Made by a program: the position numbers and the translations under genes
Shown: positions 12,893-59,042 of the stretch, piece by piece
How positions within the stretch are numbered: position 1 is the stretch's first letter
How the letters are laid out: every line of letters begins with the position of its first letter
The notes under the pieces: model-generated
The model's input: the letters and a program-made list of their open reading frames with translations, nothing else
Database searches by the model: none
What the model was told of the DNA's origin: nothing
Assembly (NCBI GenBank): GCA_017939755.1
Contig: JAGBAJ010000064.1
Location: forward strand, 7,023-71,022
DNA length: 64,000 bases
Reading direction: 5' to 3'
Origin: Clostridia bacterium
Lineage (GTDB): Bacteria > Bacillota > Clostridia > TANB77 > CAG-508

Positions 12893-13118
12893 TATAAATA
12901 AGTATATATAATTTTTCTTCTAAATATTGTTTTTTGAGGATTTATGCGGTAGAATATAAAACATAATTTGTGTTATTAAGAAAGATAATAGGGAATAAAT
13001 ATAAATTATATCACAATATGTAAAAAACTTTTTATTATTTATGTATCAAATACGACAAATATTTTAGTCACAATTGTGTAAGATATGTACATAAATAAAA
13101 AAGCAAGAGGTGGTAAGG

Positions 13119-15599
13119 ATGTTTCAAGATACGACTAATGATTTTTATAAACGAAATCATAGTAAGGATGTTAAATTTGATGGCGATGAAATGAAAGAGC
13201 TATTAAAGAAATTATTTTCAGTAAAAAATATCATTATATACATAATTTCTTTTATGATCTCGATGGTCAGTTTTGGTGGAGATGCTTCGCTTGGAATTGC
13301 CCCGTTTTCACTTGCAATAGTTTCGGCAGCAGCAAGTACTGGAATTCCAATAAGTTTTGTCTATATAGCAACTCTGTTAGGTAGCTATGTGGGACTTGGG
13401 GCAGATATTACTGGAAATTATTTTTTAACTAGTATAGTGTTTTTTGCAACGTTATTTATTATAAAGGCCAAAAAACAAGATGATGTAAATGAAAAGGTTA
13501 TGTTAGGGAAAAACATATGTATATCAATTTTATTAGTAAGAATTGTTCCTATGTTGTTTACATCAATAAAAGTTTCAAGCTTGATATTGGCAATAATGCT
13601 AACTATAGTTACGTATATTTTTTATAAAATATTTGTTAATTCATTAGATTTAATTTACGAATATGGATATAAAACTGTATTTTCTGTTGAAGAGGTAATA
13701 GGTGCAAGCTTACTTCTAGCAATAGCCCTATCTGCTATTGCACCAGTACATATATTAGGATATTCATTAAAAAATATTTTATGTATTTTGATTGTTCTAA
13801 TATTAGGATGGAAATGTGGTGTATTATTCGGTACTACAGGCGGTGCTACTATAGGTATAGTGCTAGGAATAATTGGAAATGAACATCCAATTGTTGTTGC
13901 AGCATTTTCAATTGCTGGTATGTTAGCAGGAATATTTAGCAAAATAGGAAAAATTGGAGTTATCATTGGATTCGTAATAGGAAATGTTATAATAACATAT
14001 TTTTCTAATGGAGACGTAGAGCCTATAATTGTATTTCAAGAAATATTAATAGCATCACTTGGATTGTTATTAATTCCAAAAAGAGCAGAGCATGTTATGG
14101 ACGATTTATTTGATAGAACGTCAGTATTACCGGAGACAACCAAACGTACATTAAATACGAGCAAAGAAACAGCAACAAAACTAAACAATATCTCAGAAAC
14201 GATATCTGAAATTGCAAAAAGTTATAATCAGGTAGCTGCAACAACTATTGAAGAAAAAGATGAAATACAAGATGCAAACAAAAAAATATTTGAAGAAGAG
14301 CTAAAAAACAATCTTGAAGGGTTAGAGGATAATATTTTGTATCAAGATATAAGCTGTTCTAATGAAATTATGAGTGATATCTATGATTGTTTAAAGAATA
14401 ACAATGAACTTACTAAAGATATGTTAATTGCAATTTTTGCAAAATATAATAATTATATTATTGGTATCGAGAATGGAAATTCTAGCAATGCTAGTGTCGA
14501 TAACGATATAATAGCTATGATTGATGCAATAAACAAATCTTATGATTTAGCAAAGATTAATTTTGTATGGAAGAAAAAAATAGAAGAAAAAAATAAAAAT
14601 ATGTGCAACCAATTAGAAAGTGTTTCTGAAGCTATATCTGATTTAGCAGAAGATATAGAGCATGAAGATGTAGATATTTTTTCTGAAAAAAAGGAACAAA
14701 TCACAAAATTATTAGCACAAAAGGGAATTAATATTTCCGAAATTAAAATAAAAGAAAGCGATTCAAAGAGAAAGACAATTAGTATATACACAAAGCAAGA
14801 TAATTGCAAGCAAGATAGTTGCGAATACAAAAAAATTGAAAGAGTACTAGCAAAGGTATTTGAAGAGCCGATAATTTTACAAAAAAGAAAATGCGGAGCA
14901 AAGTCAAATACAAACATATGTGGATATCAATTTATCTCAAAGGATATGTATAATCTAAAAGTTGGAATTGCAAGAGCAAAAAAGCACGATTCATTGGTAT
15001 CAGGAGACACAAGTATTCAAACTAAACTTAGTGATGGCAAGTATTTACTTGCAATAAGTGATGGAAAAGGATCTGGACCGGAAGCAAGAAAATGCAGCAA
15101 AATTGCAATAAAGATGTTAGAAAAGATGTTATCATCTGGATTTAAAAAGGATGTATCTGTGAAAATGATAAATTCTACATTAGCAGCAGATATGGATGAT
15201 GATATGTATGCAACTCTTGATATGTCTATTTTAGATTTATATCAGGGAAGTATTGAGTTTGTTAAGAACGGAGCGTGTCCAACATATATTAAGCATAATA
15301 AAAGTGTAGAGCTAATAAACTCGGTTACATTGCCAACCGGAATTATAGATGAAGTTGATTTAGTTGTGTACGATAAAGATGTTGAAGATGGTGATATTAT
15401 AGTTATGTGTAGTGATGGAATTATAGAGTCAAATGAAGACTATACACATAAAGAGCTATGGCTAAAATATTTCCTTGAAGAGCTTCAAACAAATGATGTT
15501 CAACAAATTGCTGACTTAATAATAAGCCAAGCTATAGATAATAACTATGGGAAAGAAAAGGACGACATGACAGTAATAGTTGCAAAAGTGTGCAAATAG
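13119..15599 (+). CDS. spoIIE: stage II sporulation protein E (PP2C phosphatase)
   Basis: About 10 N-terminal TM segments, a central linker and a C-terminal PP2C domain (SGDTS...AISDGKGSGPEA...MCSDGI...DDMTVIV). ATG at 13119 has SD gaggtgg 5 nt upstream; the track starts at GTG 13110. Confidence 0.95.
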   Translation: MFQDTTNDFYKRNHSKDVKFDGDEMKELLKKLFSVKNIIIYIISFMISMVSFGGDASLGIAPFSLAIVSAAASTGIPISFVYIATLLGSYVGLGADITGNYFLTSIVFFATLFIIKAKKQDDVNEKVMLGKNICISILLVRIVPMLFTSIKVSSLILAIMLTIVTYIFYKIFVNSLDLIYEYGYKTVFSVEEVIGASLLLAIALSAIAPVHILGYSLKNILCILIVLILGWKCGVLFGTTGGATIGIVLGIIGNEHPIVVAAFSIAGMLAGIFSKIGKIGVIIGFVIGNVIITYFSNGDVEPIIVFQEILIASLGLLLIPKRAEHVMDDLFDRTSVLPETTKRTLNTSKETATKLNNISETISEIAKSYNQVAATTIEEKDEIQDANKKIFEEELKNNLEGLEDNILYQDISCSNEIMSDIYDCLKNNNELTKDMLIAIFAKYNNYIIGIENGNSSNASVDNDIIAMIDAINKSYDLAKINFVWKKKIEEKNKNMCNQLESVSEAISDLAEDIEHEDVDIFSEKKEQITKLLAQKGINISEIKIKESDSKRKTISIYTKQDNCKQDSCEYKKIERVLAKVFEEPIILQKRKCGAKSNTNICGYQFISKDMYNLKVGIARAKKHDSLVSGDTSIQTKLSDGKYLLAISDGKGSGPEARKCSKIAIKMLEKMLSSGFKKDVSVKMINSTLAADMDDDMYATLDMSILDLYQGSIEFVKNGACPTYIKHNKSVELINSVTLPTGIIDEVDLVVYDKDVEDGDIIVMCSDGIIESNEDYTHKELWLKYFLEELQTNDVQQIADLIISQAIDNNYGKEKDDMTVIVAKVCK

Positions 15600-22962: not shown

Positions 22963-23100
22963 CTAAACAATAATATTGAAAATTGTTATAGTTATATAAA
23001 TCTATATTTATGTTACAAATTTGTTAAATCTATATTACATTTTTATAATAAATATTGACATATATTGAAATATATATAAAATAATAGTAGAGTTTAATTG

Positions 23101-23261
23101 TTATATATTAGGAAAATCATACTGACTTTTCCTAATATATAACAAAGGCTTCGCCGAAAACGGATGCACATCGATTAGCCGTGCGCAACGAAGTTAGCTA
23201 CGGATAATACATGCGCCGAACAAATTGACTGAAAAAATCAAAGATTTTTTCAGATTTGTTC
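23101..23261 (+). repeat. mosaic repeat family B, copy B3 (compact reference copy)
   Basis: A 16-bp hairpin TTATATATTAGGAAAA..TTTTCCTAATATATAA, CATCGATTAGCCGTGCGCAACGAAGTTAGCTACGGATAATACATG, and a 44-nt palindrome GAACAAATTGACTGAAAAAATC-aaa-GATTTTTTCAGATTTGTTC. It ends 13 nt before the rsmD ATG. Confidence 0.8.
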
Positions 23262-43322: not shown

Positions 43323-43348
43323 GATGAAATATTTATAGTAAGATATGA

Positions 43349-43549
43349 TTTTTTATACATCAGGAAAGTCATACTGACTTTTCCTAATGTATAAAAAAGG
43401 TTTCGCGAAAACAGATGCACATCGATTAGCCGTGTACAACGAAGTTAGCTACGGATAATACATGAGCCTAACAAATGCACACAAAATTCATTTCATAAAT
43501 TTTGGCGCAGAACAAATTCACGGAAAATCGGAGATTTTCCGATTTGTTC
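43349..43549 (+). repeat. mosaic repeat family B, copy B4
   Basis: Same module order as B3 plus the CACACAAAATT..AATTTTGGCGC module. The terminal hairpin is GAACAAATTCACGGAAAATC..GATTTTCCGATTTGTTC. Abuts the stop codon of the minus-strand gene at 43550. Confidence 0.8.
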
Positions 43550-44614
43550 TTAAAATAGCCCAAGTATTTTTTCAGTAGAAAACTCATTTAGTTCGTATGT
43601 TGAATTGTAAATTTTTAATATATTGTCGTCATTACATTCAATTTCTTCAGAAAACTTCTGTACAATAAATATGCAATCTGTAAGTGATAATGAGTTCTTT
43701 TCAAGCCATTTACAGAAGAACATTGAATGTAAGGCAGCTACAGAAATAGCCATAAATTTTACTTTTGAAAGAGCATCTTCATCATAAACAGCATCTAAAA
43801 AGTATCTGTAGATAAAATATGTAGAAATATTTTCAAGGTATTTTTCAAGCTCGTGGGTTTCAACTATAAATTTACTAAATTCATTTTGATTTTCTTTTAT
43901 TATTTGCTTACAATCTTTTAAGTAGTTAGGCCAATTTTGGTCATTTGGTATAAGAGTTCGAAGAAAATCAAAAATAAAAGAGATATCTGATTTGGAATAG
44001 TTAGTAACCGAGAATATTTCTTCATTATCCATCATATTAAAATCAATATTTTGTTGTAAAGTGTGTGCATACCAAACAATATCTTTTATTCTTGAAAAAA
44101 TGTCTATTGATGTATCTGAAAGATATTTAAATATTTTTGCTCTAGCTATACGTAAGTAAGAATATAGCTCTTTGTTGTACTTACAATGTACGAAAGTATT
44201 TGTCTCTACTTTATATGTGTAAAATGGAGTTGACTCAGATAAAATAATTCTGGCAGCTTCTTCGCAATAAAGTCCAAGACCACATTCAATTACATCGTTA
44301 AAACACTGATAAAAACGCGGATGTTCACTACAAATTTGACACAAATGCTCTTCACCAAGATTTATATAAATATCACATAAATTTTTACTGTTTAAAAATG
44401 GACACCTACCATCAGGCTTTAAGATGAAATGTGAAGGCGGCGTAATTTCAATTCCTTTATGAAGCTTATCACCCAAAACACCGGAAACGGATTTATAATA
44501 TTTGATGGATTCTTCATCGATGTCGATTTCCCAACCAGCTGCACAGCAATTATTGTGACACCTATCTGCAATACATTTAAAATTTTTATAATAAGATGGA
44601 TAACATTTAATCAT
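43550..44614 (-). CDS. FliB-family Cys-rich protein (flagellin lysine-N-methylase-like)
   Basis: N-terminal Cys cluster FKCIADRCHNNCCAAGWEIDID and a second cluster RCPFLNSKNLCDIY...CQICSEHPRF. No flagellar genes are nearby. Confidence 0.75.
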   Translation of the reverse strand: MIKCYPSYYKNFKCIADRCHNNCCAAGWEIDIDEESIKYYKSVSGVLGDKLHKGIEITPPSHFILKPDGRCPFLNSKNLCDIYINLGEEHLCQICSEHPRFYQCFNDVIECGLGLYCEEAARIILSESTPFYTYKVETNTFVHCKYNKELYSYLRIARAKIFKYLSDTSIDIFSRIKDIVWYAHTLQQNIDFNMMDNEEIFSVTNYSKSDISFIFDFLRTLIPNDQNWPNYLKDCKQIIKENQNEFSKFIVETHELEKYLENISTYFIYRYFLDAVYDEDALSKVKFMAISVAALHSMFFCKWLEKNSLSLTDCIFIVQKFSEEIECNDDNILKIYNSTYELNEFSTEKILGLF

Positions 44615-44794: not shown

Positions 44795-44961
44795 GGAGGG
44801 AATTAGTTTGAAAATAATTACAATTTTGACAGCGTCAATATTCATTAAAAACGTGGTTACATACAGAAAGTATGCGTCCTTACCTTTTTAATGAACATTT
44901 CCTTGTCAAAATTTAATTCTTTCCAAACTATGTGTGCCTTTTAGAAAGGAATGAATTTTTT
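44795..44961 (+). repeat. structured repeat family C, copy C1 (5' UTR of cdd)
   Basis: Differs from C3 at about 5 positions over ~157 nt. A long interrupted hairpin is followed by an SD-masking helix, ending at the cdd ATG. Confidence 0.85.
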
Positions 44962-45348
44962 ATGAATGAAGAAATTAAATTAGCGCAAATGGCTAGGATG
45001 AATGCCTATGCACCAACTACAAATTATAAAGTTGGTGCCATTCTTAGAACAAAGACTGGGAAAATTTATACAGGTTGCAATGTAGAAAATAATGGAATTC
45101 AATCAATTTGTGCAGAGCGTGTTGCTTTTGTTAAAGCTATATCAGAAGGTGAGAAGGAGTTCGAATGTATAACAGTTGTTGGAGGACCAGCAGGAAAAAA
45201 GCCAAATAAAGAATGTGTTCCATGTGGATATTGTAGACAATTTATGAGCGAATTTGTCGATGAAGAATTTAGGATAAACACAGTAGAGGGAGATAGTCTA
45301 AGACAATACACAATGCAAGATTTATTACCATTTAGTTATAAGTTCTAA
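44962..45348 (+). CDS. cdd: cytidine deaminase
   Basis: Zinc motifs CAERVAF and PCGYCRQF. The true start is the ATG at 44962; the 10 upstream codons in the track (MCLLERNEFF) are repeat C1 sequence. Confidence 0.92.
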   Translation: MNEEIKLAQMARMNAYAPTTNYKVGAILRTKTGKIYTGCNVENNGIQSICAERVAFVKAISEGEKEFECITVVGGPAGKKPNKECVPCGYCRQFMSEFVDEEFRINTVEGDSLRQYTMQDLLPFSYKF

Positions 45349-48968: not shown

Positions 48969-49160
48969 ATGAGAGATTCAAAAGATAAACGAATTAGTCC
49001 TGCTGATGAGATTAAATGTATGAGTGCATTAAAAAGTAAAATGATAGTTGGAGATTATAATAAGGTTATAGCTAGTATGAGAGAAATAGCAGCTATAGAG
49101 CAAGCAATAGAAGAGAAGGATAATGCTAGTAAGAATAAAGAAAATCTAGAAAGAGAATAA
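48969..49160 (+). CDS. hypothetical 63-aa protein
   Basis: ATG at 48969 is preceded by SD aggag. The track starts at GTG 48933. Confidence 0.5.
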   Translation: MRDSKDKRISPADEIKCMSALKSKMIVGDYNKVIASMREIAAIEQAIEEKDNASKNKENLERE

Positions 49161-49183: not shown

Positions 49184-49642
49184 GTGTCTACAAAAGATAA
49201 GAATTTAAAATATAGAAACGCTTTTTGTGAAGTGTTATTTATAATTGAAAATTTAAGCGAAGAAAATAAAAGCAAAATTTCAAAAGATTTTATCAATTTT
49301 TTAGAAAGAAATAAAAATAAAGACTTTTCCGTTACATTACCAAAAGATGCTCTAGAGCATGAGGAGCTACTATCAAAAGAAACAAAAATAATAATATCCA
49401 TGATTTATAGAGATTATTTTTGCAATGACGAGGAAAAAGCAGAATTCGATAAAACATTAATTGAAAATGAAATTGAAAAGGAAAATGAAGCACAAGCCAA
49501 ATATAGTGTTGATAGGTTATTTAAGAATTATAAGAGGGAAAATCTTGATGAAGCTGAGGAAACAATGCAATTAATGCTATATGAAGAGGCAAAGTGGTAT
49601 AAAAAAATTTGGATAAAAATAAGAAGTCTTTTTATAAAATAA
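49184..49642 (+). CDS. hypothetical 152-aa protein
   Basis: GTG start with SD aaggcggg. The pattern FCEVLFIIENLSEENKSKISKDFINFLERNKNKDF...SMIYRDYFCNDEEK recalls small proteins that often follow phage-type repressors in Firmicutes. This is from memory and unverified. Confidence 0.6.
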   Translation: MSTKDKNLKYRNAFCEVLFIIENLSEENKSKISKDFINFLERNKNKDFSVTLPKDALEHEELLSKETKIIISMIYRDYFCNDEEKAEFDKTLIENEIEKENEAQAKYSVDRLFKNYKRENLDEAEETMQLMLYEEAKWYKKIWIKIRSLFIK

Positions 49643-49659: not shown

Positions 49660-49694
49660 CGCAGGTCATCTAAGTAGGTGGTCTGCGATTTTTC
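49660..49694 (+). terminator. rho-independent terminator
   Basis: cgcaggtca / tggtctgcg stem (two G-U pairs) followed by ATTTTT. Confidence 0.6.
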
Positions 49695-49830
49695 AATTTG
49701 TTCTTCAATAGGAAAGTAACACTTTCCTATTGAAGAAAGGGCTACGCCAGAACAAATGCACACAAAATATATGAAATAAATTTTGGCGCCGAACAAATTC
49801 ACGAAAAATCTTCGATTTTCCGATTTGTTC
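49694..49830 (+). repeat. mosaic repeat family B, copy B5 (lacks the CATCGATTAGCC module)
   Basis: Hairpin CTTCAATAGGAAAGT..ACTTTCCTATTGAAG, the CACACAAAAT..ATTTTGGCGC module, and a terminal GAACAAATTCACGAAAAATC..GATTTTCCGATTTGTTC. Confidence 0.75.
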
Positions 49831-49866
49831 TTTAGCGCAGAGGCAATTTGGCAAGCATTACCTAAG

Positions 49867-49895
49867 TTGACATAAATAGATGGAAATGATATAAT
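49867..49895 (+). promoter_or_regulatory. consensus sigma-A promoter upstream of the kinase-like gene
   Basis: Perfect TTGACA - 17 nt - TATAAT, 72 nt upstream of the ATG at 49967. Confidence 0.65.
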
Positions 49896-49966: not shown

Positions 49967-51643
49967 ATGGAGAAATATTTAAATGAAATAAGATCCTACG
50001 ATAGTTCGAATGGATGTAGTCAATTAAATATGACATCGATAATCAGAAATATGATTATTGAGTGTAGATATAATCATATAGAAAATGAAAAAGTTACCAA
50101 TTTTATAGACGAAAATTTAGTAGAAATAATTGAAAAATTGACAGCAGAAGAAATAAAGATATTTTCATTGATGTATTTAAAAAATGCAGAATTTTCAAAG
50201 AGTCCAGCTAATCTACTAAAACTATATACAAATATTAATAGAAGAATTGAGTCTGAAATTGAGTCTGGAAATAAAATAAATAAAGAAATGGGTGAAGCTA
50301 TAGAGCAGATAATACAACGTATGCCAAATGTGTGTCAAACGCCAGACTATTTTGAAGATAAATTTCGTATATTGTTTGATTGTGTTGCGTTGCCTGTTAA
50401 AATAAGTGCATATAAAGCCTTGAAGGGAAAGGATGAAGCCTTTGACGATGAAATGAGAGCTGAAATACTTACAAACCTCAAATTATATCTAGATTATCAA
50501 GATGAATCATCCCTTTTAGATATTATGAAAACATTAACAAGTGATGAATTATTTGATGGGTTGTTAGAAGAAGATATTTATACTTTTGTAGACCAATTTA
50601 AAACTATTCAAACTATGGCGATGGAAGGAAAAAAAACAGAGAATATGGAGACCACATCTAAAATTTGTGAGTACTTAGATATGTATTTTAATTCATATAT
50701 TAATAGGATAAACGGAGATGAATCTCAAATTAAGGATTTAATAGATGAATCGGAACCACCATTATCTTTTATGATAATAGATAATTATAAAGATACATCT
50801 TCTACAGAGCTTAGAGATTTTATGAATGATAAGTTAGAGTCATTTAAAAATTGCTATGCCTCATGGCTATTACAAAAATTTAAATATAGTAATTCAATGT
50901 ATGATTCTAATATATATGAGGAAAATTATATAGTTCAGAATTATGAGGTAGTAAGAACCATGTTAGATGAATTACTTAAAAGTGAGAATCAAAGATTGAT
51001 AGATATTAAACAAATTGGACAAGGTGGATCTTCTAGGGTATATCAAATTAAAGATAAAGTGATTAAAATTGGTGAAAAAAGGGTAAACCCTAGAATTCCA
51101 ATGCATAGAAGACTAATACAGCCATTAGTAAGATTGGAACTTGATGATGTTTGTATAGAGGTACAAGATAGGGTGGAAATACGAGATGACATAGAGAAGG
51201 AAGATTTATATCCTATTTTTTGTGAAATGTTAGATGAAGGAATTATATGGGGAGATTCAAAATGTGAAAATGTGGGGGTGTTATTGAAGGATAATGAGGC
51301 AACGCTAAATGGAGAAGTAATATCTGTTAGTCCAGACGCTGTGAACTATGATGTTCGTGAGGGTTGTAGTGTAGCAGAACCGTTGAAAGCTGGTGAACTT
51401 GTAGTTATAGATACTGATTATGTATTTTATGAATCAGAAAGAAATAAAAGACCGAATTTTATGATAGAATGGGCAATAGAGTTTTATGAACGATACAAAA
51501 TAGAGCACCCAGAAAAATATGATCAAAATGGAGAAAGAAAGGCGAATACAATTACTCTAAGTAATAGTGATGGAGATAATAAAGGTCAAGCCGATGGCGA
51601 AAATCCTCCTGCAGAAACAGGACATGATATAGAAAATAGATAA
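49967..51643 (+). CDS. protein with C-terminal protein-kinase-like (PKL) domain and novel helical N-terminal region
   Basis: The C-terminal ~200 aa carry motifs in canonical order: Gly loop IGQGGSSRVY, lysine VIKIG, catalytic loop WGDSKCENVG (D-x-K-x-x-N) and metal-binding VVIDTDY. No motif is recognised in the N-terminal ~340 aa. Confidence 0.65.
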   Translation: MEKYLNEIRSYDSSNGCSQLNMTSIIRNMIIECRYNHIENEKVTNFIDENLVEIIEKLTAEEIKIFSLMYLKNAEFSKSPANLLKLYTNINRRIESEIESGNKINKEMGEAIEQIIQRMPNVCQTPDYFEDKFRILFDCVALPVKISAYKALKGKDEAFDDEMRAEILTNLKLYLDYQDESSLLDIMKTLTSDELFDGLLEEDIYTFVDQFKTIQTMAMEGKKTENMETTSKICEYLDMYFNSYINRINGDESQIKDLIDESEPPLSFMIIDNYKDTSSTELRDFMNDKLESFKNCYASWLLQKFKYSNSMYDSNIYEENYIVQNYEVVRTMLDELLKSENQRLIDIKQIGQGGSSRVYQIKDKVIKIGEKRVNPRIPMHRRLIQPLVRLELDDVCIEVQDRVEIRDDIEKEDLYPIFCEMLDEGIIWGDSKCENVGVLLKDNEATLNGEVISVSPDAVNYDVREGCSVAEPLKAGELVVIDTDYVFYESERNKRPNFMIEWAIEFYERYKIEHPEKYDQNGERKANTITLSNSDGDNKGQADGENPPAETGHDIENR

Positions 51644-51803
51644 TTGTTAATAAACAGCAATGAAGTTTAAAATTTTTAAGGAGATGACAGGTATGTCATA
51701 TATAGAATTTAGGGACGTTAACAAAACATAAGTATTTTCCTTAATCGTAAATAAAATTATTCATTTTTTATAAAGTTAACGCAGCGATCAAATGCCAGAA
51801 ACG

Positions 51804-51832
51804 TTGACAATATCGCGGTTATGTGTAATAAT
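51804..51832 (+). promoter_or_regulatory. candidate sigma-A promoter of the MoxR operon
   Basis: TTGACA - 16/17 nt - TAATAA/AATAAT, about 35 nt upstream of the ATG at 51865. Confidence 0.45.
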
Positions 51833-51864
51833 TGTAGTGAAAAAATTATAAGGAATGGTAAAAT

Positions 51865-52860
51865 ATGGAGGAAGAAAATATATCAAAAATATCTGAACTT
51901 GAATTACAAAAATGTAACGAGATTATAACAAAAATACAAAACTATTATAGTGAAAAAATGGTTGGTCAATATAGACTAAAAGTATCATTATTGGCAGCTG
52001 TAATTGCCAATGGACACATTTTATTAGAATCTGTTCCAGGTTTAGCAAAAACTACTGCTGCAAAAGTATTAACAGAAGCAGTATCTGGTCAATTTTCTAG
52101 AATTCAGTGTACACCGGATTTGTTACCAAGTGATATAGTTGGTACACAAACATTTAATTATGCTACAAATACTTTTGAAACAAAACTAGGTCCCGTGTAT
52201 GCAAATTTTGTTTTGTTAGATGAAATTAATAGATCTAGTGCAAAAACACAAAGTGCTATGCTAGAGGCAATGCAAGAAGGGCAAGCAAGTATTGGTGGTC
52301 AAATATATAAAATGCCAGAGGTATTCATTGTCATAGCAACACAAAATCCAATAGAGCAAGAAGGTACATATATGCTTGCAGAAGCTCAGTTAGATAGATT
52401 TTTATTAAAGGAAAAATTAGATTATCCAACAAAGAGCGAAGAATTAGAAATTTTAAATAGAATAGAAAAAGATGTATTCAGTCAAAGCAAACCTGTATTA
52501 GACTTAAAAAGCATTACTTATTTACAAAATGTTGCCAAAAAGGTCTATATAGATGACTCTATAAAGAAATATATTGTTGATATAATTGATGCAACAAGAA
52601 ATCCTTCAAATGTAATTTCAGAAGATTTAGCTCAGTATGTTACATTGGGGGCGAGTACAAGAGGTGCAATTGCTTTTATGGAAGTTGCTAAAGCAGTTGC
52701 ATTAATAAATGGAAGAAGTTACGTTACCCCAGACGATATTAAATCATTAAGATATAGCGTTCTAAGGCATAGAATATCACTTAGTTATGCCGCAATTGCG
52801 GATAACGTAAGTGTTGAAACAATAATTGATGCTATATTTGGAGCGATACCTACACCATGA
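51865..52860 (+). CDS. MoxR-family AAA+ ATPase
   Basis: Walker A ESVPGLAKT, Walker B FVLLDEINR and sensor region ATQNP. 331 aa. Confidence 0.93.
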   Translation: MEEENISKISELELQKCNEIITKIQNYYSEKMVGQYRLKVSLLAAVIANGHILLESVPGLAKTTAAKVLTEAVSGQFSRIQCTPDLLPSDIVGTQTFNYATNTFETKLGPVYANFVLLDEINRSSAKTQSAMLEAMQEGQASIGGQIYKMPEVFIVIATQNPIEQEGTYMLAEAQLDRFLLKEKLDYPTKSEELEILNRIEKDVFSQSKPVLDLKSITYLQNVAKKVYIDDSIKKYIVDIIDATRNPSNVISEDLAQYVTLGASTRGAIAFMEVAKAVALINGRSYVTPDDIKSLRYSVLRHRISLSYAAIADNVSVETIIDAIFGAIPTP

Positions 52861-53726
52861 TAATGGATTACATCACAAAAATAAAAGCAAATATATCAAT
52901 ATATTCAAATAAAAAAACAATGAATGTTTTAGATGGTTCATATAGATCTATATATAAGGGCCGTAGTATGAACTTTGAAGATTTACGAGAATACGTTATG
53001 GGGGATAATGTTAAAGATATTGATTGGAAAGCTTCTGCAAGAAGCGGAAATTTGCTAGTTAGACAATTTATAGCAGAAAAGAAACATAACATAATGATAG
53101 TTATGGATACAGGAAAAAAGATGTTGGCAGATACAAAGCTAAATGAGAGCAAGAGCAATGTTGCTCTTATGTCAGCAGGTACCATTGCATATTTAGCTAA
53201 TAAAAATGGTGATTATGTTGGATCTGTATATGGAAAAAATAATAAAATAACGTATTTTCCATTTAAATCAGATTTAAATAGCATAGAAAAAATACTTACT
53301 AGCTATAACAAAGACATTCAGACATCTAGTGAGTCTTCTTTGCAGCAGTCATTAGAATATATAAGCAAATATGTAAAAAAGAAAATGATAATTTTTGTAA
53401 TTACAGATATTGATGGAATACAAAATGTTCAAGAAAGAACCTTAAAAAATTTAACAACCATGCACGATGTGTTATTTGTCAATATTACTGATGCAGATAT
53501 AACAAATAATATGGCTTTTGATGTAGAGCGTGAATTATACATACCAAAGCTTATATTTAGTGATAAAAAACTTCACGAATTAGAGAGCAAGTTAAAAGAG
53601 CAAATTTATAAGAATTGGGAAAATAAATTAAAAAGATATGGTATTTTTATGATTTCATTAAATTCAAACAAGGAAATACCGACAAAGGTAATAGAATTAC
53701 TAGAAAGGCATAGGGTTGGAAAGTAA
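52857..53726 (+). CDS. DUF58 domain protein
   Basis: Motif DLREYVMGDNVKDIDWKASARSGNLLVRQF. ATGA overlap with the moxR stop. Confidence 0.9.
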   Translation: MIMDYITKIKANISIYSNKKTMNVLDGSYRSIYKGRSMNFEDLREYVMGDNVKDIDWKASARSGNLLVRQFIAEKKHNIMIVMDTGKKMLADTKLNESKSNVALMSAGTIAYLANKNGDYVGSVYGKNNKITYFPFKSDLNSIEKILTSYNKDIQTSSESSLQQSLEYISKYVKKKMIIFVITDIDGIQNVQERTLKNLTTMHDVLFVNITDADITNNMAFDVERELYIPKLIFSDKKLHELESKLKEQIYKNWENKLKRYGIFMISLNSNKEIPTKVIELLERHRVGK

Positions 53727-53872
53727 TTACAATTTTGGCTATGTCAAATTTCATTTAAAACGCGATTACATACAACGAGTATGCGCCCTTGCCTTTTAAA
53801 TGAAATTTTCCTTGCCAAAATTTAATTCCTTTCCAACTGGATTTATGCCTTGAGGAAGGAATAAGATTGAAA
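53714..53872 (+). repeat. structured repeat family C, copy C2 (intercistronic, DUF58 / small TM gene)
   Basis: A diverged copy that retains all helices through compensatory changes. It overlaps the last codons and stop of the DUF58 gene. Confidence 0.8.
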
Positions 53873-54331
53873 ATGCAAACATCCGTTAATCTACAGGACC
53901 CTTTTTCATATGCAATATATCCAGTTTTTTTTATAATAATTATTTTATTGGTCTACATTATAGTTTTATTTTGTAAACATAAAAATAAGGTAAAAGTTAA
54001 ATCTATATCAAAAAAGCAGGTTGTAGATATCGAAAGAATAAAACCTAGGTACATAAAAAAATTGGATGATGTTGAATATAAATTGGATAGTAAAAAAATT
54101 TCAATAAGAACAGCGTATCAAAGTACAAGCAAGATTATCAGAAACTTTGTACATGAAGTTTCTGGTATTAAAGTTCAAAATTATACGTTAGAAGAAATAA
54201 AAGATTTGAATATGCCAGTATTATATGAGCTGGTAAAAGAGTATTATACGCCAGAGTTTGCTGAGCAATCGTCTGGGAATATAAAAAATTCAATTGAAAA
54301 GACAAGAAAGGTAATAGAAAAATGGAGCTAG
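53873..54331 (+). CDS. small single-TM protein (DUF4381-like position in Bat-type operons)
   Basis: One TM (YAIYPVFFIIIILLVYIIVLF) followed by a soluble tail. ATG at 53873 is chosen by analogy with SD spacing in the other C repeats; the track uses TTG 53867. Confidence 0.65.
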   Translation: MQTSVNLQDPFSYAIYPVFFIIIILLVYIIVLFCKHKNKVKVKSISKKQVVDIERIKPRYIKKLDDVEYKLDSKKISIRTAYQSTSKIIRNFVHEVSGIKVQNYTLEEIKDLNMPVLYELVKEYYTPEFAEQSSGNIKNSIEKTRKVIEKWS

Positions 54332-55317
54332 TATATCCTTGGGTTTTAATTATAGGAATACCTTTATTAATTATTACTATATTATGGAAGATAAAAAGAC
54401 AGGACAAGTTTAAAAGTGGTAGCAAAGTAGCAAATACAAAATATGTAACGAATATGCCATATTATAAAAAAATAATGAGGAAATATAAATTCTTATCTGC
54501 CACTATAAAAGTAGTCTGTGTGTTAACCATTATATTATCACTAATACTTTTTGCTAGACCTGTTTCAGTAGATACAATCGAACCAGAAAAGTATAACAGA
54601 GATATTTTTCTATGTATGGATATTTCTACATCAGTTATTACGATAAATAAACAAGTTGTGCAGCAATTTAAGAAAATTGTAAAGGAACTGAATGGGGAAA
54701 GAATTGGAATTACCATATTTAATCGTTCAGCGGTAATTATGGTACCACTTACAGATGACTATGATTATCTGTTGGATACATTAGATAAGTTAGAGGAGGG
54801 TTTTGACTCATTCGGAGAAAATGCTAATATAGTCAGTTTGTCAGACTATTATTACAATTATGCAGGAACAATGGAAGGTCCAGATGAAAGGGGATCTTCG
54901 CTTATAGGTGATGGTTTAGCATCATGCGTTTATGGGTTTTCAAATTTAGAAGAAAATAGAGCGAGAACCATTATATTTTCTACAGATAATGATTTACAAG
55001 GAACTCCAATATACACATTAAAAGAAGCGGCGCAGGTTTGTAAAAGTAAAGGAGTAACTGTTTATGGGATAACTACAAGTTTGGTTCGTAATGAAGAGGA
55101 TTTTAAAGATGCAATGGAATTAACTGGAGGGAATTTATATCAATCAGATTCTTCAACAACAATAAAAGATATAGTAGAAAATATAAATAATAGAGAAAAA
55201 ACTCTACTTAAAGAAAATAAAAAAACAATAAAAACTGGTATTCCTCAAGTTCCATTTATAATGTTGGTTATATCAATACTAGTTTTGTTTGTATTAAATA
55301 AAAGGGTGAATTTATGA
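54322..55317 (+). CDS. vWA-domain membrane protein (BatA-like)
   Basis: Two N-terminal TMs, a vWA domain with MIDAS DISTS and a C-terminal TM. Confidence 0.85.
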   Translation: MELVYPWVLIIGIPLLIITILWKIKRQDKFKSGSKVANTKYVTNMPYYKKIMRKYKFLSATIKVVCVLTIILSLILFARPVSVDTIEPEKYNRDIFLCMDISTSVITINKQVVQQFKKIVKELNGERIGITIFNRSAVIMVPLTDDYDYLLDTLDKLEEGFDSFGENANIVSLSDYYYNYAGTMEGPDERGSSLIGDGLASCVYGFSNLEENRARTIIFSTDNDLQGTPIYTLKEAAQVCKSKGVTVYGITTSLVRNEEDFKDAMELTGGNLYQSDSSTTIKDIVENINNREKTLLKENKKTIKTGIPQVPFIMLVISILVLFVLNKRVNL

Positions 55318-56261
55318 CAATATATCCAATTATACCCATATGGATTATGGGATTAATATGCATTATATTTTTAGTATTTATAATAGTTAAAGGTAGAAAA
55401 AAATGGGGATTAGTAAGACAAATTTTAATTTTAGTGTTACTATTCGTAATAAATCTTAGACCAATGATAGTATCACCAGATGCACAAATTTTATCAAGCA
55501 ACTATGATGTTTTATTTGTGGTGGATAATACCTTAAGTATGCGTGCAGAAGACTACAATGGAAAAGAGAGAAGAATTGACGCCGTAAAAGCAGATTGCAA
55601 ATATATAATGGAAGAGCTGGATGGATCAAGGTTCTCTGTTATTTCTTTTAATAATGATTCTCAAGTATTAGTACCATATACTAGAGATACAAATTTAGCT
55701 TATGAATCAATAGAGGTTATTCGTACAATAGATACATTGTATGCTAGAGGGAGTACACTTAATGTTGCAAAAGATGCAATTAAGGAATCATTAGAGAGCG
55801 CGTCAAACGAGTCTAATAGAAAGAAAATTATTTTCTTTATAAGTGATGGAGAAATAACAAATGGAGAAAAGCTAAAATCGTTTTCAGAGATAAAAAAATA
55901 TGTAGATGATGGAGCTGTGCTTGGTTATGGAACAAAAAAAGGCGGTAAGATATTAGTTAAGGATACATTTGAAGAGGAATATTATTATTTACAAGATAAG
56001 TCAGGTTATCCATATGTAGATGCAGTTTCTGTGATTGATGAAGACAATTTAAAAGATATAGCTAAAGATATTGGCATAGATTACATAAATATGAATAAGC
56101 AATCAAATATTACATCAAAAATAAATGAGTTAAAGAAGGGAAAGGTATCTGATATTAGCCCTGAGAATATAAGCTCTTTTACAGATATATATTACTTTTT
56201 TGTAATACCATTAATTGTTTTATTGATGTTTGAATTTTTTTATTATAAAAGAAAATTGTAA
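55314..56261 (+). CDS. vWA-domain membrane protein (BatB-like)
   Basis: N-terminal TMs, a vWA domain with MIDAS-like DNTLS and a C-terminal TM. ATGA overlap with the previous gene. Confidence 0.85.
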   Translation: MTIYPIIPIWIMGLICIIFLVFIIVKGRKKWGLVRQILILVLLFVINLRPMIVSPDAQILSSNYDVLFVVDNTLSMRAEDYNGKERRIDAVKADCKYIMEELDGSRFSVISFNNDSQVLVPYTRDTNLAYESIEVIRTIDTLYARGSTLNVAKDAIKESLESASNESNRKKIIFFISDGEITNGEKLKSFSEIKKYVDDGAVLGYGTKKGGKILVKDTFEEEYYYLQDKSGYPYVDAVSVIDEDNLKDIAKDIGIDYINMNKQSNITSKINELKKGKVSDISPENISSFTDIYYFFVIPLIVLLMFEFFYYKRKL

Positions 56262-56346
56262 TTAAAAAAGAAATTTTATTGCATAAAATTTTGCACAGAA
56301 TAGATTTGCTCTTATAGGAAAATTATAATTTTAGAAAATTTTTCAT

Positions 56347-56392
56347 AATTATGTGAGCCTTTGAATGAAGTGAGAAAGGAACGAATTTTAAC
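56347..56392 (+). repeat. family C 3' module only, copy C4 (upstream of the TPR gene)
   Basis: attatgtgagcctttgaatgaagtgagaaaggaacgaattttaacATG aligns with C1 actatgtgtgccttttagaaaggaatgaattttttATG. Confidence 0.5.
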
Positions 56393-57100
56393 ATGAAAAA
56401 AACTCGCAAAGTTCATACCATAATTTGTAGTATACTCATATTGTTACTAGTTGTAATTTTATTTTTTTACATATTAAATGAGATTTTTATTTCAAATTAT
56501 GAAAAAAATGAATACAATAATAAAACATTGGAAGTGTTGAAAATGGTAAATGTTTATCAGCCATATATCGCACACTACAATAATGGTAATAGATTATATA
56601 AATTAGGAGATCATAAAGAAGCAATAAATGAATACAAAAGAGCATTAGAACTATTTCCACCAGAAAAGAAAGAATGCTCTATTAGAATAAATTTAGCTTT
56701 AGCTATGATTAATAATATAGAAAATGAATCTGAACCAAATGTGGAAGATATTTTAGATGTATTAGCTGAAGCAAAAGAAGTCCTATGCGAAGGTGGTTGT
56801 GCCAATAGAGATAATAATAAAGGACATAGCAAAAAGGCAGAGCAACTAAAAGAAGATATTGAAGAATATGAAGAAAAATTAAAAAAACAACAGAAAGAAT
56901 CGAAAGATGATAAGGAAAATAAAAAAGATAAGGATAAAGATGATTCACAAGATGACGATAACAACAAAGATGATGAACTAAAAAGAAAAGAAAAGCAGAT
57001 AAAAGAGCTACAAAAACAAAGTAATAAATCCCGTCAACAAGACGTAGGTTCAGTTAAAGATAGCAATTCCTATGAGTATTATTCGGGGAAAAAATGGTAA
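56393..57100 (+). CDS. TPR-repeat membrane protein with charged C-terminal tail (BatC-like)
   Basis: N-terminal TM, a TPR (YNNGNRLYKLGDHKEAINEYKRALELFP) and a K/D/E-rich tail. Confidence 0.8.
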   Translation: MKKTRKVHTIICSILILLLVVILFFYILNEIFISNYEKNEYNNKTLEVLKMVNVYQPYIAHYNNGNRLYKLGDHKEAINEYKRALELFPPEKKECSIRINLALAMINNIENESEPNVEDILDVLAEAKEVLCEGGCANRDNNKGHSKKAEQLKEDIEEYEEKLKKQQKESKDDKENKKDKDKDDSQDDDNNKDDELKRKEKQIKELQKQSNKSRQQDVGSVKDSNSYEYYSGKKW

Positions 57101-57103
57101 TTT

Positions 57104-57267
57104 AGGAGGTAGTTTGAAAATAATTACAATTTTGACAGCGTCAATATTCATTAAAAACGCGGTTACATACAGAAAGTATGCGCCCTTACCTTTTTAATGA
57201 ACATTTCCTTGTCAAAATTTAATTCTTTCCAAACTATGTGTGCCATTTAGAAAGGAATGGTTTTTTT
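57104..57267 (+). repeat. structured repeat family C, copy C3 (between the TPR gene and the HExxH gene)
   Basis: Near-identical to C1. It starts 4 nt after the TPR stop and ends at the ATG at 57268. Confidence 0.85.
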
Positions 57268-58119
57268 ATGAAAAAAATAGAGGATAGAGCAGAAGAAGAA
57301 AAGATAAGAGCATATTTAAAGGATTATGTAGGATATTATTGCAAAGCAATGGAAATGATTAATATTCCTGTTGATAGAAGAGCTTTAGAAGAATTAATTA
57401 ATGAAATTTCCATAGAAATTAACGAAGAAGCTGGAACCACAGGAACATTTGAGGTTAGCCAAGTAAACAAGTTTTTTCATGTTAGAAAGAACAATTTTGA
57501 AAAGAATGGTACTAAGAGAAATAATTTTTTAATGTTGCATGAAATGACACATTTAAGTAATGCATATAATAAAGAAATGAGTGAACAGCTAAACGAAAGT
57601 GTAAGAGCTTTTAATGAATATAGTAGTATCCAAAATAATGAAGATTTATCAGGCATAGATGCTGCATACGGATTAATTTCTATTGATGAGGTATTAGCTC
57701 AGTGGTGCTGTGAAAAATGCAATAGTGCGATTAGTGGAAATACAGTAGATAAACATGATGAAGTTCATACAATTTTAGGTAATGAAGTAAAAGTAGTAAC
57801 TGATTTTTCAGAGCATGATGTATATGCACCATTAGAAGAGCATGTAGAAGATTTTGCAATTAGTTTGGGATATAAAAATTTAGACGATTTTGCTAGAGCT
57901 CTAATTATAGGTGAGATAAGTTTATTTGACTACATAAATGAACAAAATATAGAGCAATTGGGTTACATAGGAATATTATGCCAAGGTATATACCAAGAGA
58001 ATGGTTTTAGAGATTGTGGGTTGCCTTCAACTGATATACCAAAGGCAGTAGAGTATCTTAAAGGAAGAAAGCAAGACGTTAGTTTTCCAACAGATCCTGG
58101 TGATGATGGAAATCGTTAA
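57268..58119 (+). CDS. hypothetical HExxH (zincin-like) protein
   Basis: LMLHEMTHLS plus a downstream Glu (SIDEVLAQW). The true start is the ATG at 57268; the track's MCHLERNGFF extension is repeat C3 sequence. Confidence 0.75.
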   Translation: MKKIEDRAEEEKIRAYLKDYVGYYCKAMEMINIPVDRRALEELINEISIEINEEAGTTGTFEVSQVNKFFHVRKNNFEKNGTKRNNFLMLHEMTHLSNAYNKEMSEQLNESVRAFNEYSSIQNNEDLSGIDAAYGLISIDEVLAQWCCEKCNSAISGNTVDKHDEVHTILGNEVKVVTDFSEHDVYAPLEEHVEDFAISLGYKNLDDFARALIIGEISLFDYINEQNIEQLGYIGILCQGIYQENGFRDCGLPSTDIPKAVEYLKGRKQDVSFPTDPGDDGNR

Positions 58120-58170
58120 GATATGCTCTGATAGAGCAGTAATTTTTAGAAGATTTGAAATATGGTGATA

Positions 58171-58214
58171 ATTTAGGAGTAGATAAAAATATCTGCTCCT
58201 AAATTATTTTTTTG
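58171..58214 (+). terminator. rho-independent terminator
   Basis: tttaggagtagata / tatctgctcctaaa stem followed by a T-run. Confidence 0.75.
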
Positions 58215-58280: not shown

Positions 58281-59042
58281 ATGGATTTTATTATGGTAAA
58301 ACAAACAGCAGGTAGAGATTCTTTAGGAGAATTTGCACCAAAATTTGCAGAATTAAATGATGATGTATTATTTGGAGAAGTATGGAGTAGAGAGGATAAA
58401 CTTTCTTTAAGAGATAGAAGTTTGGTTACAATTTGCATATTTATGGGAAAAGGAATGGTTGATAGCTCTTTAAAATTCCACTTAATAAATGCTAAAAATA
58501 ATGGCATCACCAAAGAAGAAATGGCAGAGATTATAACTCATGCTGCATTTTATGCAGGGTGGCCAAATGCTTGGGCAGTATTTAATATGGCAAAAGAAAT
58601 ATATGCAGATAGTGATGATACTTGCGAAAAAGAGCATGGGGGATTTTTTGGACAAGGAGAGCCTAATACAGCATTTGCTCAATATTTTGTTGGAAATTCA
58701 TATTTAAAACCATTAACAAAACCAGGGGAATCAAATGTATTTCTCGCTAATGTTACTTTTGAACCTGGATGTAGAAACAATTGGCATATACACAGGGCAA
58801 CATCAGGCGGAGGTCAAATCTTAGTTTGCGTCGATGGAGAAGGCTGGTATCAAGAAGAAGGTAAGGAAGCTGTTAGCTTAAAACCTGGTATGGTTATAAC
58901 AATACCCGCAAATGTAAAACATTGGCATGGTGCAAAGAAAGATTCCTGGTTTAGTCATATAGCAGTAGAAGTGCCAGGTAGTGACACATCAAATGAATGG
59001 TGTGAACCTGTATCAGATGAAGAATACGATAAATTAGGATAG
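58281..59042 (+). CDS. carboxymuconolactone decarboxylase-family / cupin fusion protein
   Basis: N-terminal CMD-like half (DDVLFGEVWSREDKLSLRDRSLVTI...HAAFYAGWPNAW) and C-terminal cupin (FEPGCRNNWHIHRATSGGGQILVCVDGEG). The start is ambiguous between 58281 and 58293. Confidence 0.8.
   Translation: MDFIMVKQTAGRDSLGEFAPKFAELNDDVLFGEVWSREDKLSLRDRSLVTICIFMGKGMVDSSLKFHLINAKNNGITKEEMAEIITHAAFYAGWPNAWAVFNMAKEIYADSDDTCEKEHGGFFGQGEPNTAFAQYFVGNSYLKPLTKPGESNVFLANVTFEPGCRNNWHIHRATSGGGQILVCVDGEGWYQEEGKEAVSLKPGMVITIPANVKHWHGAKKDSWFSHIAVEVPGSDTSNEWCEPVSDEEYDKLG

Follow-up and report, generated by a model that had tools for sequence, protein, structure and literature searches.

A conserved six-gene Bat-like operon of an uncultured Clostridia bacterium and the repeat elements at its gene junctions

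Contig JAGBAJ010000064.1, a 90-kb piece of metagenomic DNA from an uncultured Clostridia bacterium, carries a run of same-strand genes encoding a MoxR-type ATPase, a DUF58 protein, a small transmembrane (TM) protein, two von Willebrand factor A (vWA) proteins and a tetratricopeptide repeat (TPR) protein, an arrangement recalling the Bacteroides aerotolerance (Bat) operon. We analysed a 64,000-nucleotide (nt) stretch of this 29% G+C chromosomal DNA—hereafter the window—in which copies of a hairpin repeat, family C, lie between several of these genes, while a kinase-like gene and a zincin-like gene with an HExxH motif lie on either side. Do the genes from the kinase-like to the HExxH gene form one system, as a first-pass annotation made from the sequence alone had proposed, and how did the repeats come to punctuate the operon? 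The analysis points, with good though not full confidence on our part, to a six-gene Bat-like core that was invaded by family C, with the kinase-like gene being unrelated to it and the HExxH gene a neighbour.

The operon comprises a six-gene core conserved in gut Clostridia

The core spans positions 51865-57100 of the window.

51865..52860, plus strand: MoxR-type AAA+ ATPase, 331 amino acids (aa); AAA_3 4.8e-57, AAA_lid_2 5.6e-20; identity of 68-76% to its counterparts in the Clostridia operon loci
52857..53726, plus strand: DUF58 protein, 289 aa; DUF58 8e-30
53873..54331, plus strand: small membrane protein, 152 aa, its position kept in all relatives; possibly DUF4381-like
54322..55317, plus strand: BatA-like vWA1, 331 aa; VWA 8.2e-7, closest NCBIfam model BatA_Lepto at 1.6e-15 (genus-specific model, score under its curated cut-off)
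55314..56261, plus strand: BatB-like vWA2, 315 aa; VWA_2 7e-15, closest NCBIfam model BatB_Lepto at 1.4e-20 (likewise genus-specific and under cut-off)
56393..57100, plus strand: BatC-like TPR protein, 235 aa; TPR_2 9.1e-8, TM segment 10-28; last conserved gene of the core

Profile matches bore out the gene order and domains given at first pass for every protein but the small TM protein, which returned neither a Pfam nor an NCBIfam match. A hydropathy and charge scan assigned it a single TM segment (residues 17-35) with a K/R-rich C-terminal flank, followed by a conserved C-terminal domain. Its homologues gave weak matches to DUF4381 (4 of 12, best 4.8e-4; the window protein itself gives none) and to DUF4446 (8 of 12, best 0.0025). 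vWA1 has TM segments at 3-21, 60-78 and 307-325 and a metal-ion-dependent adhesion site (MIDAS) motif, DISTS, at residue 100; vWA2 has two N-terminal and one C-terminal TM segment and a MIDAS-like DNTLS. A motif scan of the DUF58 protein found the DxSxS MIDAS motif to be absent. The TPR protein combines one detectable TPR with an N-terminal TM segment and a charged low-complexity tail.

The junctions are tight wherever no repeat intervenes: MoxR/DUF58 and vWA1/vWA2 are the ATGA overlaps assigned earlier to all the remaining junctions, but that assignment did not hold for small TM/vWA1, which is a 10-nt overlap (ATGGAGCTAG). Elsewhere, the window encodes MutL, FtsK/SpoIIIE, a penicillin-binding protein, an RNase J-like protein and SpoIIE (13110-15599), the last of which makes the earlier description of the host as a sporeformer a reasonable one.

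With the DUF58 protein as query, we scanned collections holding one genome per species as well as metagenome collections. These scans yielded 14 plus 8 loci in metagenome-assembled genomes (MAGs) of Clostridiales, Lachnospiraceae, Ruminococcaceae and Oscillospiraceae, in addition to a distant Treponema locus. Gene order was identical in them, all six genes were present wherever the contig was long enough, and MoxR identity ranged from 64 to 76% across the 14 genome loci and the full-length metagenome loci. All 25 other loci fetched in this way from uncultured Clostridia retained the core, with 23 being complete and two cut by contig ends. In L149, the closest relative with the whole operon (DUF58 69% identical), the junctions are overlapping or 1 nt long throughout, and no family C copy was found in its operon or in that of any other relative.

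Genes 3′ of the operon differ between relatives, comprising a pyrR-pyrB pyrimidine cluster (both genes identified by reading translations) in a rumen clade and other genes in L149. A conserved seventh operon gene was considered and rejected: since the rumen-clade downstream genes begin with pyrR and pyrB, they represent an unrelated pyrimidine-biosynthesis cluster. The six genes are thus an ordinary, widely conserved MoxR/vWA membrane operon of gut Clostridia.

Resemblance to Bat clusters and other MoxR operons

The order MoxR, DUF58, small TM, BatA-like, BatB-like and TM/TPR protein fits both bb0176-bb0171 and the Bacteroides Bat layout (PMC5700661, PMC11834572), and the same gene order is seen in Borrelia burgdorferi bb0176-bb0170, in Leptospira batA/B/D and in the Bat cluster at large. 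The likeness extends to protein architecture. Borrelia BB0173 has TM segments at about 7-25, 57-77 and 310-328, a MIDAS at 99-103 and a vWA domain shown experimentally to face away from the cytoplasm (PMC5700661); this layout of three TM segments with a MIDAS near residue 100 nearly matches that of vWA1. Unlike the B. fragilis batA-E set, the window operon ends after the TPR gene and lacks BatD as well as BatE (TPR plus SH3). It further differs from known Bat clusters in that its host appears to be a SpoIIE-encoding organism of Clostridium type, probably with no periplasm, and in that two of its junctions carry repeat insertions. With no periplasm, the vWA domains would sit at the cytoplasmic membrane and face outward. 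Calling this a Bat-type operon, as the first-pass annotation did, is supported in the sense of resemblance and partial membership. The MRP-subfamily MoxR operons of Riemerella anatipestifer and Francisella tularensis provide a second point of comparison: there, as here, MoxR comes first and shows the highest conservation of all members, and DUF58, VWA and TPR partners are common to both; regulation by PhoP and MoxR autoregulation have been reported elsewhere.

The Bat/MoxR clusters of Bacteroidota, spirochaetes and Francisella are reported to have stress-tolerance roles (PMC3557215, PMC11834572, PMC5700661). From this family knowledge and the predicted topology, a functional model can be drawn up in which MoxR, a cytoplasmic AAA+ remodelling ATPase, would work with DUF58 as a cytoplasmic partner of vWA fold. 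The single-pass small protein, the two three-pass vWA proteins and the single-pass TPR scaffold would make up a membrane complex, with the MIDAS-bearing vWA domains exposed on its outer face. Such a complex would assemble, mature or maintain envelope-associated proteins, and the operon would probably contribute to envelope or oxidative-stress tolerance.

MoxR-vWA modules have also been proposed, on computational grounds, as NTP-dependent biological-conflict systems, here taken to mean anti-phage defence. MoxR does show a secondary match to bpMoxR, of the MoxR-vWA-beta-propeller type (9.2e-10), and the region varies between related genomes, with an integrase gene lying about 4 kb downstream. 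However, its AAA_3 match is far stronger (4.8e-57), searches with Pfam and NCBIfam found no beta-propeller, effector or other typical partner, none of the genes gave a convincing PADLOC model match, and the six-gene order is conserved across several Clostridia lineages beside housekeeping genes such as the pyr operon. We consider a conflict role scarcely credible for this operon. As a Bat-like module, in turn, it is of an already known kind. It extends the MoxR-DUF58-BatA/B/C arrangement to SpoIIE-encoding gut Clostridia, probably without a periplasm, and its minimal six-gene core, devoid of BatD and BatE, may help functional studies, yet it is unsurprising; the more interesting lead is family C.

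Family C copies interrupt junctions that are tight in relatives

Three copies of family C and one apparent remnant were located in the window.

44799-44966, plus strand: C1, before a dCMP-deaminase gene, outside the operon
53708-53875, plus strand: C2, at the DUF58/TM junction; the inserted element (53714..53870, about 157 nt) consists of a hairpin (53714-53838) and a tail
56262..56392, plus strand: vWA2/TPR spacer, 131 nt, a probable decayed copy whose tail, TATGTGAGCCTTT...GAGAAAGGAA, provides the putative Shine-Dalgarno (SD) sequence of the TPR gene
57105-57272, plus strand: C3 (feature 57105..57267), 96% identical to C1, before the HExxH ATG

C2 is 68% identical to C1 and C3. Each copy is composed of a hairpin of about 125 nt and a non-palindromic tail of about 35 nt bearing an SD sequence, roughly 160 nt in total, and the pattern used to search for the family has 0.00 expected chance occurrences. 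The three hairpins fold with z-scores of -4.2 to -7.3 relative to shuffled sequences (C2: -46.7 kcal/mol, z -7.3). The existence of the family as a non-random repeat at the DUF58/TM junction and after the TPR gene was therefore confirmed by the copies and hairpins found. The tail follows the consensus ...ATTTGTGCCTTnAGnAAGGAATGnGATTAAAAATG, with its SD at the proper distance from the ATG of the next gene. In this manner, the SD of the C2 tail (GAGGAAGGAA) would serve the small TM gene and that of C3 (AGAAAGGAATGG) the HExxH gene; together with the TPR gene, three cistrons appear to take their SD from a repeat, as noted at first pass.

The DUF58/TM junction offers the clearest view of how an element was accommodated. 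In L149 it reads ...GAAAGGCATAGAA/ATGCAAACATCCGTTAAT..., this empty site also being written GAAAGGCATAGAA/ATGCAAAC or GAAAGGCATAGAA/ATGCAAACATCC, the slash marking the junction point. The window instead reads ...GAAAGGCATAGG, then about 157 nt, then ATGCAAACATCCGTTAAT.... Because the empty site of L149 falls exactly at the position of C2, we conclude that C2, hairpin and tail included, was inserted between the SD and the ATG of the small TM gene. The ancestral-type SD of that gene, GAAAGG, lies within the coding end of DUF58. The insertion had consequences on both of its sides. As the first-pass annotation had observed, the DUF58 stop codon (53724-53726) is situated within the 5′ arm of C2, which encodes the last three DUF58 codons as well as the stop, so that the protein ends in ...LLERHRVGK in the window as opposed to ...LLERHRNANIR in L149; the insertion thus cost DUF58 its ...NANIR end and gave it ...VGK from the element. 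Likewise, the 17-nt DUF58/TM overlap, and with it the coupling of the two genes, was swapped for a 146-nt gap and a new SD. Among public short-read assemblies (Logan), two contigs from the same species, L018 (3906-4021) and L019 (3128-3243), end inside C2, which shows the repeat breaking assemblies at this operon.

Between vWA2 and the TPR gene, both L149 and the sister lineage L157 have TAA-T-ATG, a spacer of 1 nt, compared with the 131 nt of the window. The 3′ part of this spacer contains the tail motif TATGTGnGCCnTT, whose only other exact matches are in C1 and C3. A gapped end-to-end alignment of the spacer with C3 scored 55.4 against 32.7 ± 5.3 for shuffled sequences, none of which (0/500) reached that value, while the spacer itself folds with a z-score of +1.1 and hence forms no stable hairpin. 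The old SD of the TPR gene, AAAGGAG in L157, has become AAAGAAA in the window. The spacer looks like an old family C copy of which only the SD tail, by now indispensable, was maintained. The earlier description of a 3′ module accordingly stands as far as the SD-bearing tail is concerned, but the remainder resembles a decayed whole copy rather than a module of its own.

C3 lies between an orphaned AGGAGG (57104-57109 region, 4 nt past the TPR stop) and the HExxH ATG. In L157, the TPR/HExxH spacer is an unrelated 84 nt with its own GGAGG-4 nt-ATG. Comparison with the corresponding junctions of relatives showed C2 and the 131-nt spacer to be of insertional origin, and as the closest relatives have tight, repeat-free junctions, the repeats are best described as secondary, lineage-specific insertions of a genome-wide repeat and not as part of the operon's design. 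Any target-site duplication at C2 would comprise at most 0-2 nt.

In this lineage, family C invaded the operon at least three times. The arrival of C2 between the SD and the ATG of the small TM gene created the new C-terminus and stop of DUF58, broke the overlap and supplied a new SD. The elements may have been tolerated, and later retained, because their tails restore translation initiation, with the TM, TPR and HExxH cistrons now presumably being translated from element-supplied SDs.

Family C is widespread and oriented with transcription

Searching with a 24-nt pattern from the 5′ arm of the family, we retrieved at least 119 loci. They are spread over at least 74 species-level assemblies of uncultured gut Clostridia, sampled from humans, rabbits, chickens, mice and ruminants, and the arms are nearly invariant across these species. 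Phage, plasmid and IMG/VR collections gave no match (blastn of C2; arm pattern on IMG/VR). Rfam searches of the whole window at gathering thresholds, and of C2 and C3 at E ≤ 10, returned only noise in the form of plant and animal miRNA models, and a full-text literature search for miniature inverted-repeat transposable elements (MITEs) carrying a ribosome-binding site (RBS), or for SD-targeting repeats, found nothing relevant.

Among 92 scorable copies, element and gene were co-oriented in about 90% of cases (42:5 for the upstream and 37:3 for the downstream gene). The tail SD was present in 72 of these copies, and 70 were followed by an open reading frame (ORF) of at least 60 codons. A strong SD-like motif directly precedes the hairpin in 38% of 85 scorable copies, as opposed to 7% at a control position, which fits the geometry of C2 and C3. 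Fifteen of 40 stem pairs exhibited compensatory double changes, and two apical-stem subfamilies could be told apart (CATAC/GTATG and CGTAC/GTACG). Twenty downstream genes proved to be unrelated housekeeping genes—RsmG, DapF, GuaA, MiaB-like, pyruvate kinase, RecJ, ATCase, MscS and YpeB among them—and therefore suggest no regulon logic. The same gene type did recur downstream of family C in different species, which we deduced from ORFs of equal length, with one or two per group checked against Pfam; this recurrence suggests old, vertically inherited insertions.

These features bear on the question of whether the hairpins are selected cis-regulatory RNA elements, namely sites of RNA processing or stabilisation, or devices that uncouple translation, and so fix the ratio of cytoplasmic (MoxR, DUF58) to membrane (TM, vWA, TPR) subunits, or whether they are selfish insertions that are simply tolerated. 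The strong co-orientation with transcription, the compensatory changes that preserve the stem, the insertions kept across species in apparently orthologous positions (going by ORF lengths) and the location of C2 at the very point where genes for cytoplasmic subunits give way to genes for membrane subunits would all be in line with such a role. On the other hand, the closest relatives manage without the hairpins at tight or overlapping junctions, the vWA2/TPR copy lost its hairpin but kept the SD tail, and there is no functional theme among the downstream genes. Moreover, the antisense hairpin is the more stable one in 89 of 89 copies (three in the window and 86 in L020-L138), averaging -45.6 compared to -33.2 kcal/mol for the sense strand. 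The orientation bias thus more likely stems from the RBS tail than from selection for a sense-strand hairpin, and we regard cis-regulation by the hairpins as unlikely.

Other candidate functions of the element were rejected: that of an intrinsic terminator because no T-run follows the hairpin, and that of a promoter carrier because neither C2 nor C3 contains a plus-strand promoter-like site; a sigma-70-like promoter is absent. A small ORF within the hairpin, whose peptide would begin at a TTG in the 5′ arm with the upstream SD before it, was considered and rejected, both because a 1-nt difference shifts the frame of C1 and C3 relative to the family consensus and because the variable positions co-vary as stem pairs, not codons. 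A mini-hairpin sequestering the tail SD had an energy no better than shuffled sequences (z -0.2 and -0.4). In the 846 kb of loci that we fetched, no longer element bounded by these arms, and hence no autonomous parent, came to light; the search did not extend to the public collections.

Family C can be likened to the MITE-like and repetitive extragenic palindrome (REP)-like intergenic repeats that are co-transcribed with genes: Correia elements in Neisseria, ERIC/IRU in enterobacteria, RUP and BOX in pneumococcus and bcr1 in the Bacillus cereus group. With these it shares an imperfect long palindrome, dispersed intergenic and intra-operon copies, the provision of stop codons to upstream genes, and empty versus filled sites. 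Family C stands out by its 3′ tail, which is conserved, non-palindromic and SD-bearing, by its preferential location between an SD and an ATG, and by combining about 90% gene co-orientation with near-invariant arms. Family C might represent an undescribed kind of small mobile element, widespread in uncultured gut Clostridia, that would preferentially land in the few bases separating SD and ATG and bring a replacement RBS in its 3′ tail, a reading we judge a little more apt to fail than to hold.

Were it to hold, such an element could enter operons under tight coupling as well as essential genes, shorten or lengthen the protein encoded before it and uncouple translation, and it would become fixed once no RBS but its own tail still worked. 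One fresh, one older and one decayed copy would then make the Bat-type operon a natural showcase. Family C provides a clean, dated example of how a selfish hairpin can enter a translationally coupled operon and rewrite the end of the upstream protein, with the operon surviving because the element brings its own RBS. Elements of this type can also mislead gene callers and break short-read assemblies.

Several family C copies of other MAGs harbour, at differing positions, a second and smaller hairpin element some 48 nt long, AGCTATGCATACTGACCTTGTAACAGGCAAAGCCTTAACAAGCTCAGCAT (L048, 2565 region, minus strand; L050, 7164 region; L099, 3846 region; L132, 4879 region, minus strand; L103, 6150 region). 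It looks like an independent mobile mini-element.

Flanking genes and transcription signals

Two further protein-coding genes on the same strand and four candidate transcription signals accompany the operon.

49660-49687: terminator-like site at the outer 5′ end of the block
49867-49895, plus strand: promoter-like site of the kinase-like gene, 12/12 consensus positions
49967..51643, plus strand: kinase-like protein, 558 aa, with a helical-repeat N-terminal part and a C-terminal domain of protein-kinase fold
51804..51832, plus strand: promoter-like site of the operon (TTGACA-17 nt-AATAAT, TG-extended), 11/12, 33 nt upstream of the MoxR start; a consensus match only, of a sort that is not enriched over the region
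57268..58119, plus strand: HExxH protein, 283 aa, zincin-like, with the motif HEMTH
58167..58208, plus strand: terminator-like hairpin with a T-run, closing the transcription unit

In agreement with the first-pass annotation, terminator-like hairpins bound the block, occurring at its outer ends (49660-49687 and 58167-58208) but not between the TPR and HExxH genes. The block it delimited at 49967-58119 is indeed on one strand throughout, but holds eight called genes as opposed to nine. Given that the elements have neither a promoter nor a T-run, the operon should remain one transcript, and we infer a single RNA running from the promoter-like site at 51804 to the terminator-like site at 58167. 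The HExxH gene is probably co-transcribed with the operon here, to judge from the arrangement of these signals.

The earlier assignment of a kinase-like gene upstream and a zincin-like HExxH gene downstream agrees with predicted folds and invariant motifs. For the kinase-like protein (model pLDDT 79), the fold of the C-terminal domain matched CaMKII, Kin28, S6K1 and CDK2 with probabilities of 0.97-1.0, although the best E-value was 4.3e-3 and none was ≤ 0.001. The Gly-loop, Lys, D-x4-N and DxD positions are invariant, and with its G-loop, Lys, D..N and DxD the protein shares both motifs and fold with eukaryotic-type protein kinases. Just 11 homologues were detectable among 5.8 billion clusters, and the genome-collection scan found no relatives. 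Around the closest homologue (61%), the two small genes upstream are retained, but ABC/FtsX, GH25 and desulfoferrodoxin genes come next on the other side; in the window, a desulfoferrodoxin gene is found about 2 kb past the operon. Remoter homologues have the C-terminal domain alone in common and occupy other genomic places. The kinase-like gene and the two small genes before it (48969-49160, 63 aa, and 49184-49642, 152 aa) could be a small conserved trio.

The HExxH protein (model pLDDT 93) has 40 homologues (41 members found), and HEMTH is invariant in 21 of them. Its sole meaningful matches were local ones to the minigluzincin selecase, and these were weak (sequence E 0.55; fold probability 0.96, E 0.09); the other non-trivial match, BlaR1, likewise had a weak E-value. 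With selecase MJ1213 it shares an HExxH helix placed after a small beta-sheet. Neither flanking protein belongs to a Pfam or NCBIfam family, searches of the PDB with both sequences gave nothing but E > 0.1, and both are much larger than their selecase or kinase-fold counterparts, with extra domains. The members of this family, about 280 aa long, are putative metallopeptidases of gut Clostridia that have yet to be characterised.

Only in the sister lineage L157 is an HExxH gene adjacent to the operon: the closest homologue (73%) comes after the vWA-TPR genes there, and the operon proteins are 71-81% identical to those of the window. Homologues at 59% and 50% have other surroundings: an HD-domain gene close to ftsZ/spoIIGA/sigE, or a stretch rich in integrases. 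A duplicated 3′ fragment of the HExxH gene is also present in L157, between a NUDIX gene and a CMD-cupin gene (L157, 3599-3784 and 3803-4393). The CMD-cupin is 97% identical to that of the window (58281-59042), compared to the 71-81% of the operon proteins, a contrast that could stem from an exchange in the recent past or from very strong conservation.

This context decides on the larger system put forward at first pass, in which the kinase-like, six Bat-type and HExxH genes would make up a single stress or conflict system of eight or nine genes, with the kinase sensing or regulating and the metallopeptidase carrying out the effector step. Such a proposal draws on the common strand between two terminator-like sites with none between the TPR and HExxH genes, on the HExxH gene lying 3′ of the operon in the sister lineage too, and on the enzyme-like folds and conserved catalytic motifs of both flanking proteins. 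Yet tblastn with the kinase-like, HExxH and other neighbour proteins found none of them within about 10 kb in the 25 other operon loci fetched through DUF58; the closest kinase-like homologue retains its upstream partners while having different downstream genes, and distant HExxH homologues reside in unrelated contexts. Moreover, the kinase-like gene (12/12) and MoxR (11/12) have separate promoter-like sites and are set apart by a gap of 221 nt, and none of the eight proteins gave a PADLOC match above noise. The extended system is unsupported since its flanking genes are not conserved with the operon in relatives; the comparative context largely refutes it, and we judge it very improbable. The kinase-like gene is a separate unit upstream and not an operon member, and the HExxH gene, a neighbour at the level of the genus, is no conserved member either.

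We therefore return to the six-gene Bat-like core invaded by family C, a reading that has to be set against several observations. On the side of the operon, the biochemical role of Bat/MoxR clusters is unsettled even in model organisms, and Leptospira bat mutants had no oxidative-stress defect (PMC3557215). The Pfam BatA N-terminal ('aerotolerance regulator') domain was not detected in vWA1 or vWA2 at E ≤ 0.01, although the two N-terminal TM helices are present, and the link of the small TM protein to DUF4381 is weak. On the side of the repeats, we identified neither a target-site duplication nor a cognate transposase, one gapped alignment underlies the view of 56262-56392 as a decayed copy, and a role of the sense-strand hairpin in the mRNA is uncertain given the better antisense fold. 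Both the co-transcription of the genes and the use of the element SDs are, finally, read from the sequence.

Two features of the intergenic DNA around the kinase-like gene complete the description of the locus. A 12-codon mini-ORF (MSYIEFRDVNKT, then a stop) with a good AAGGAG SD is located at 51693-51731, in the gap before the promoter-like site of MoxR. Another repeat family, composed of a hairpin and 'AACAAATGCACAC...TTTTCCGATTTGTTCTT', has copies at 23089-23235, 43341-43551 and 49751-49832, the last of which is positioned between the terminator-like site at 49660 and the promoter-like site of the kinase-like gene.

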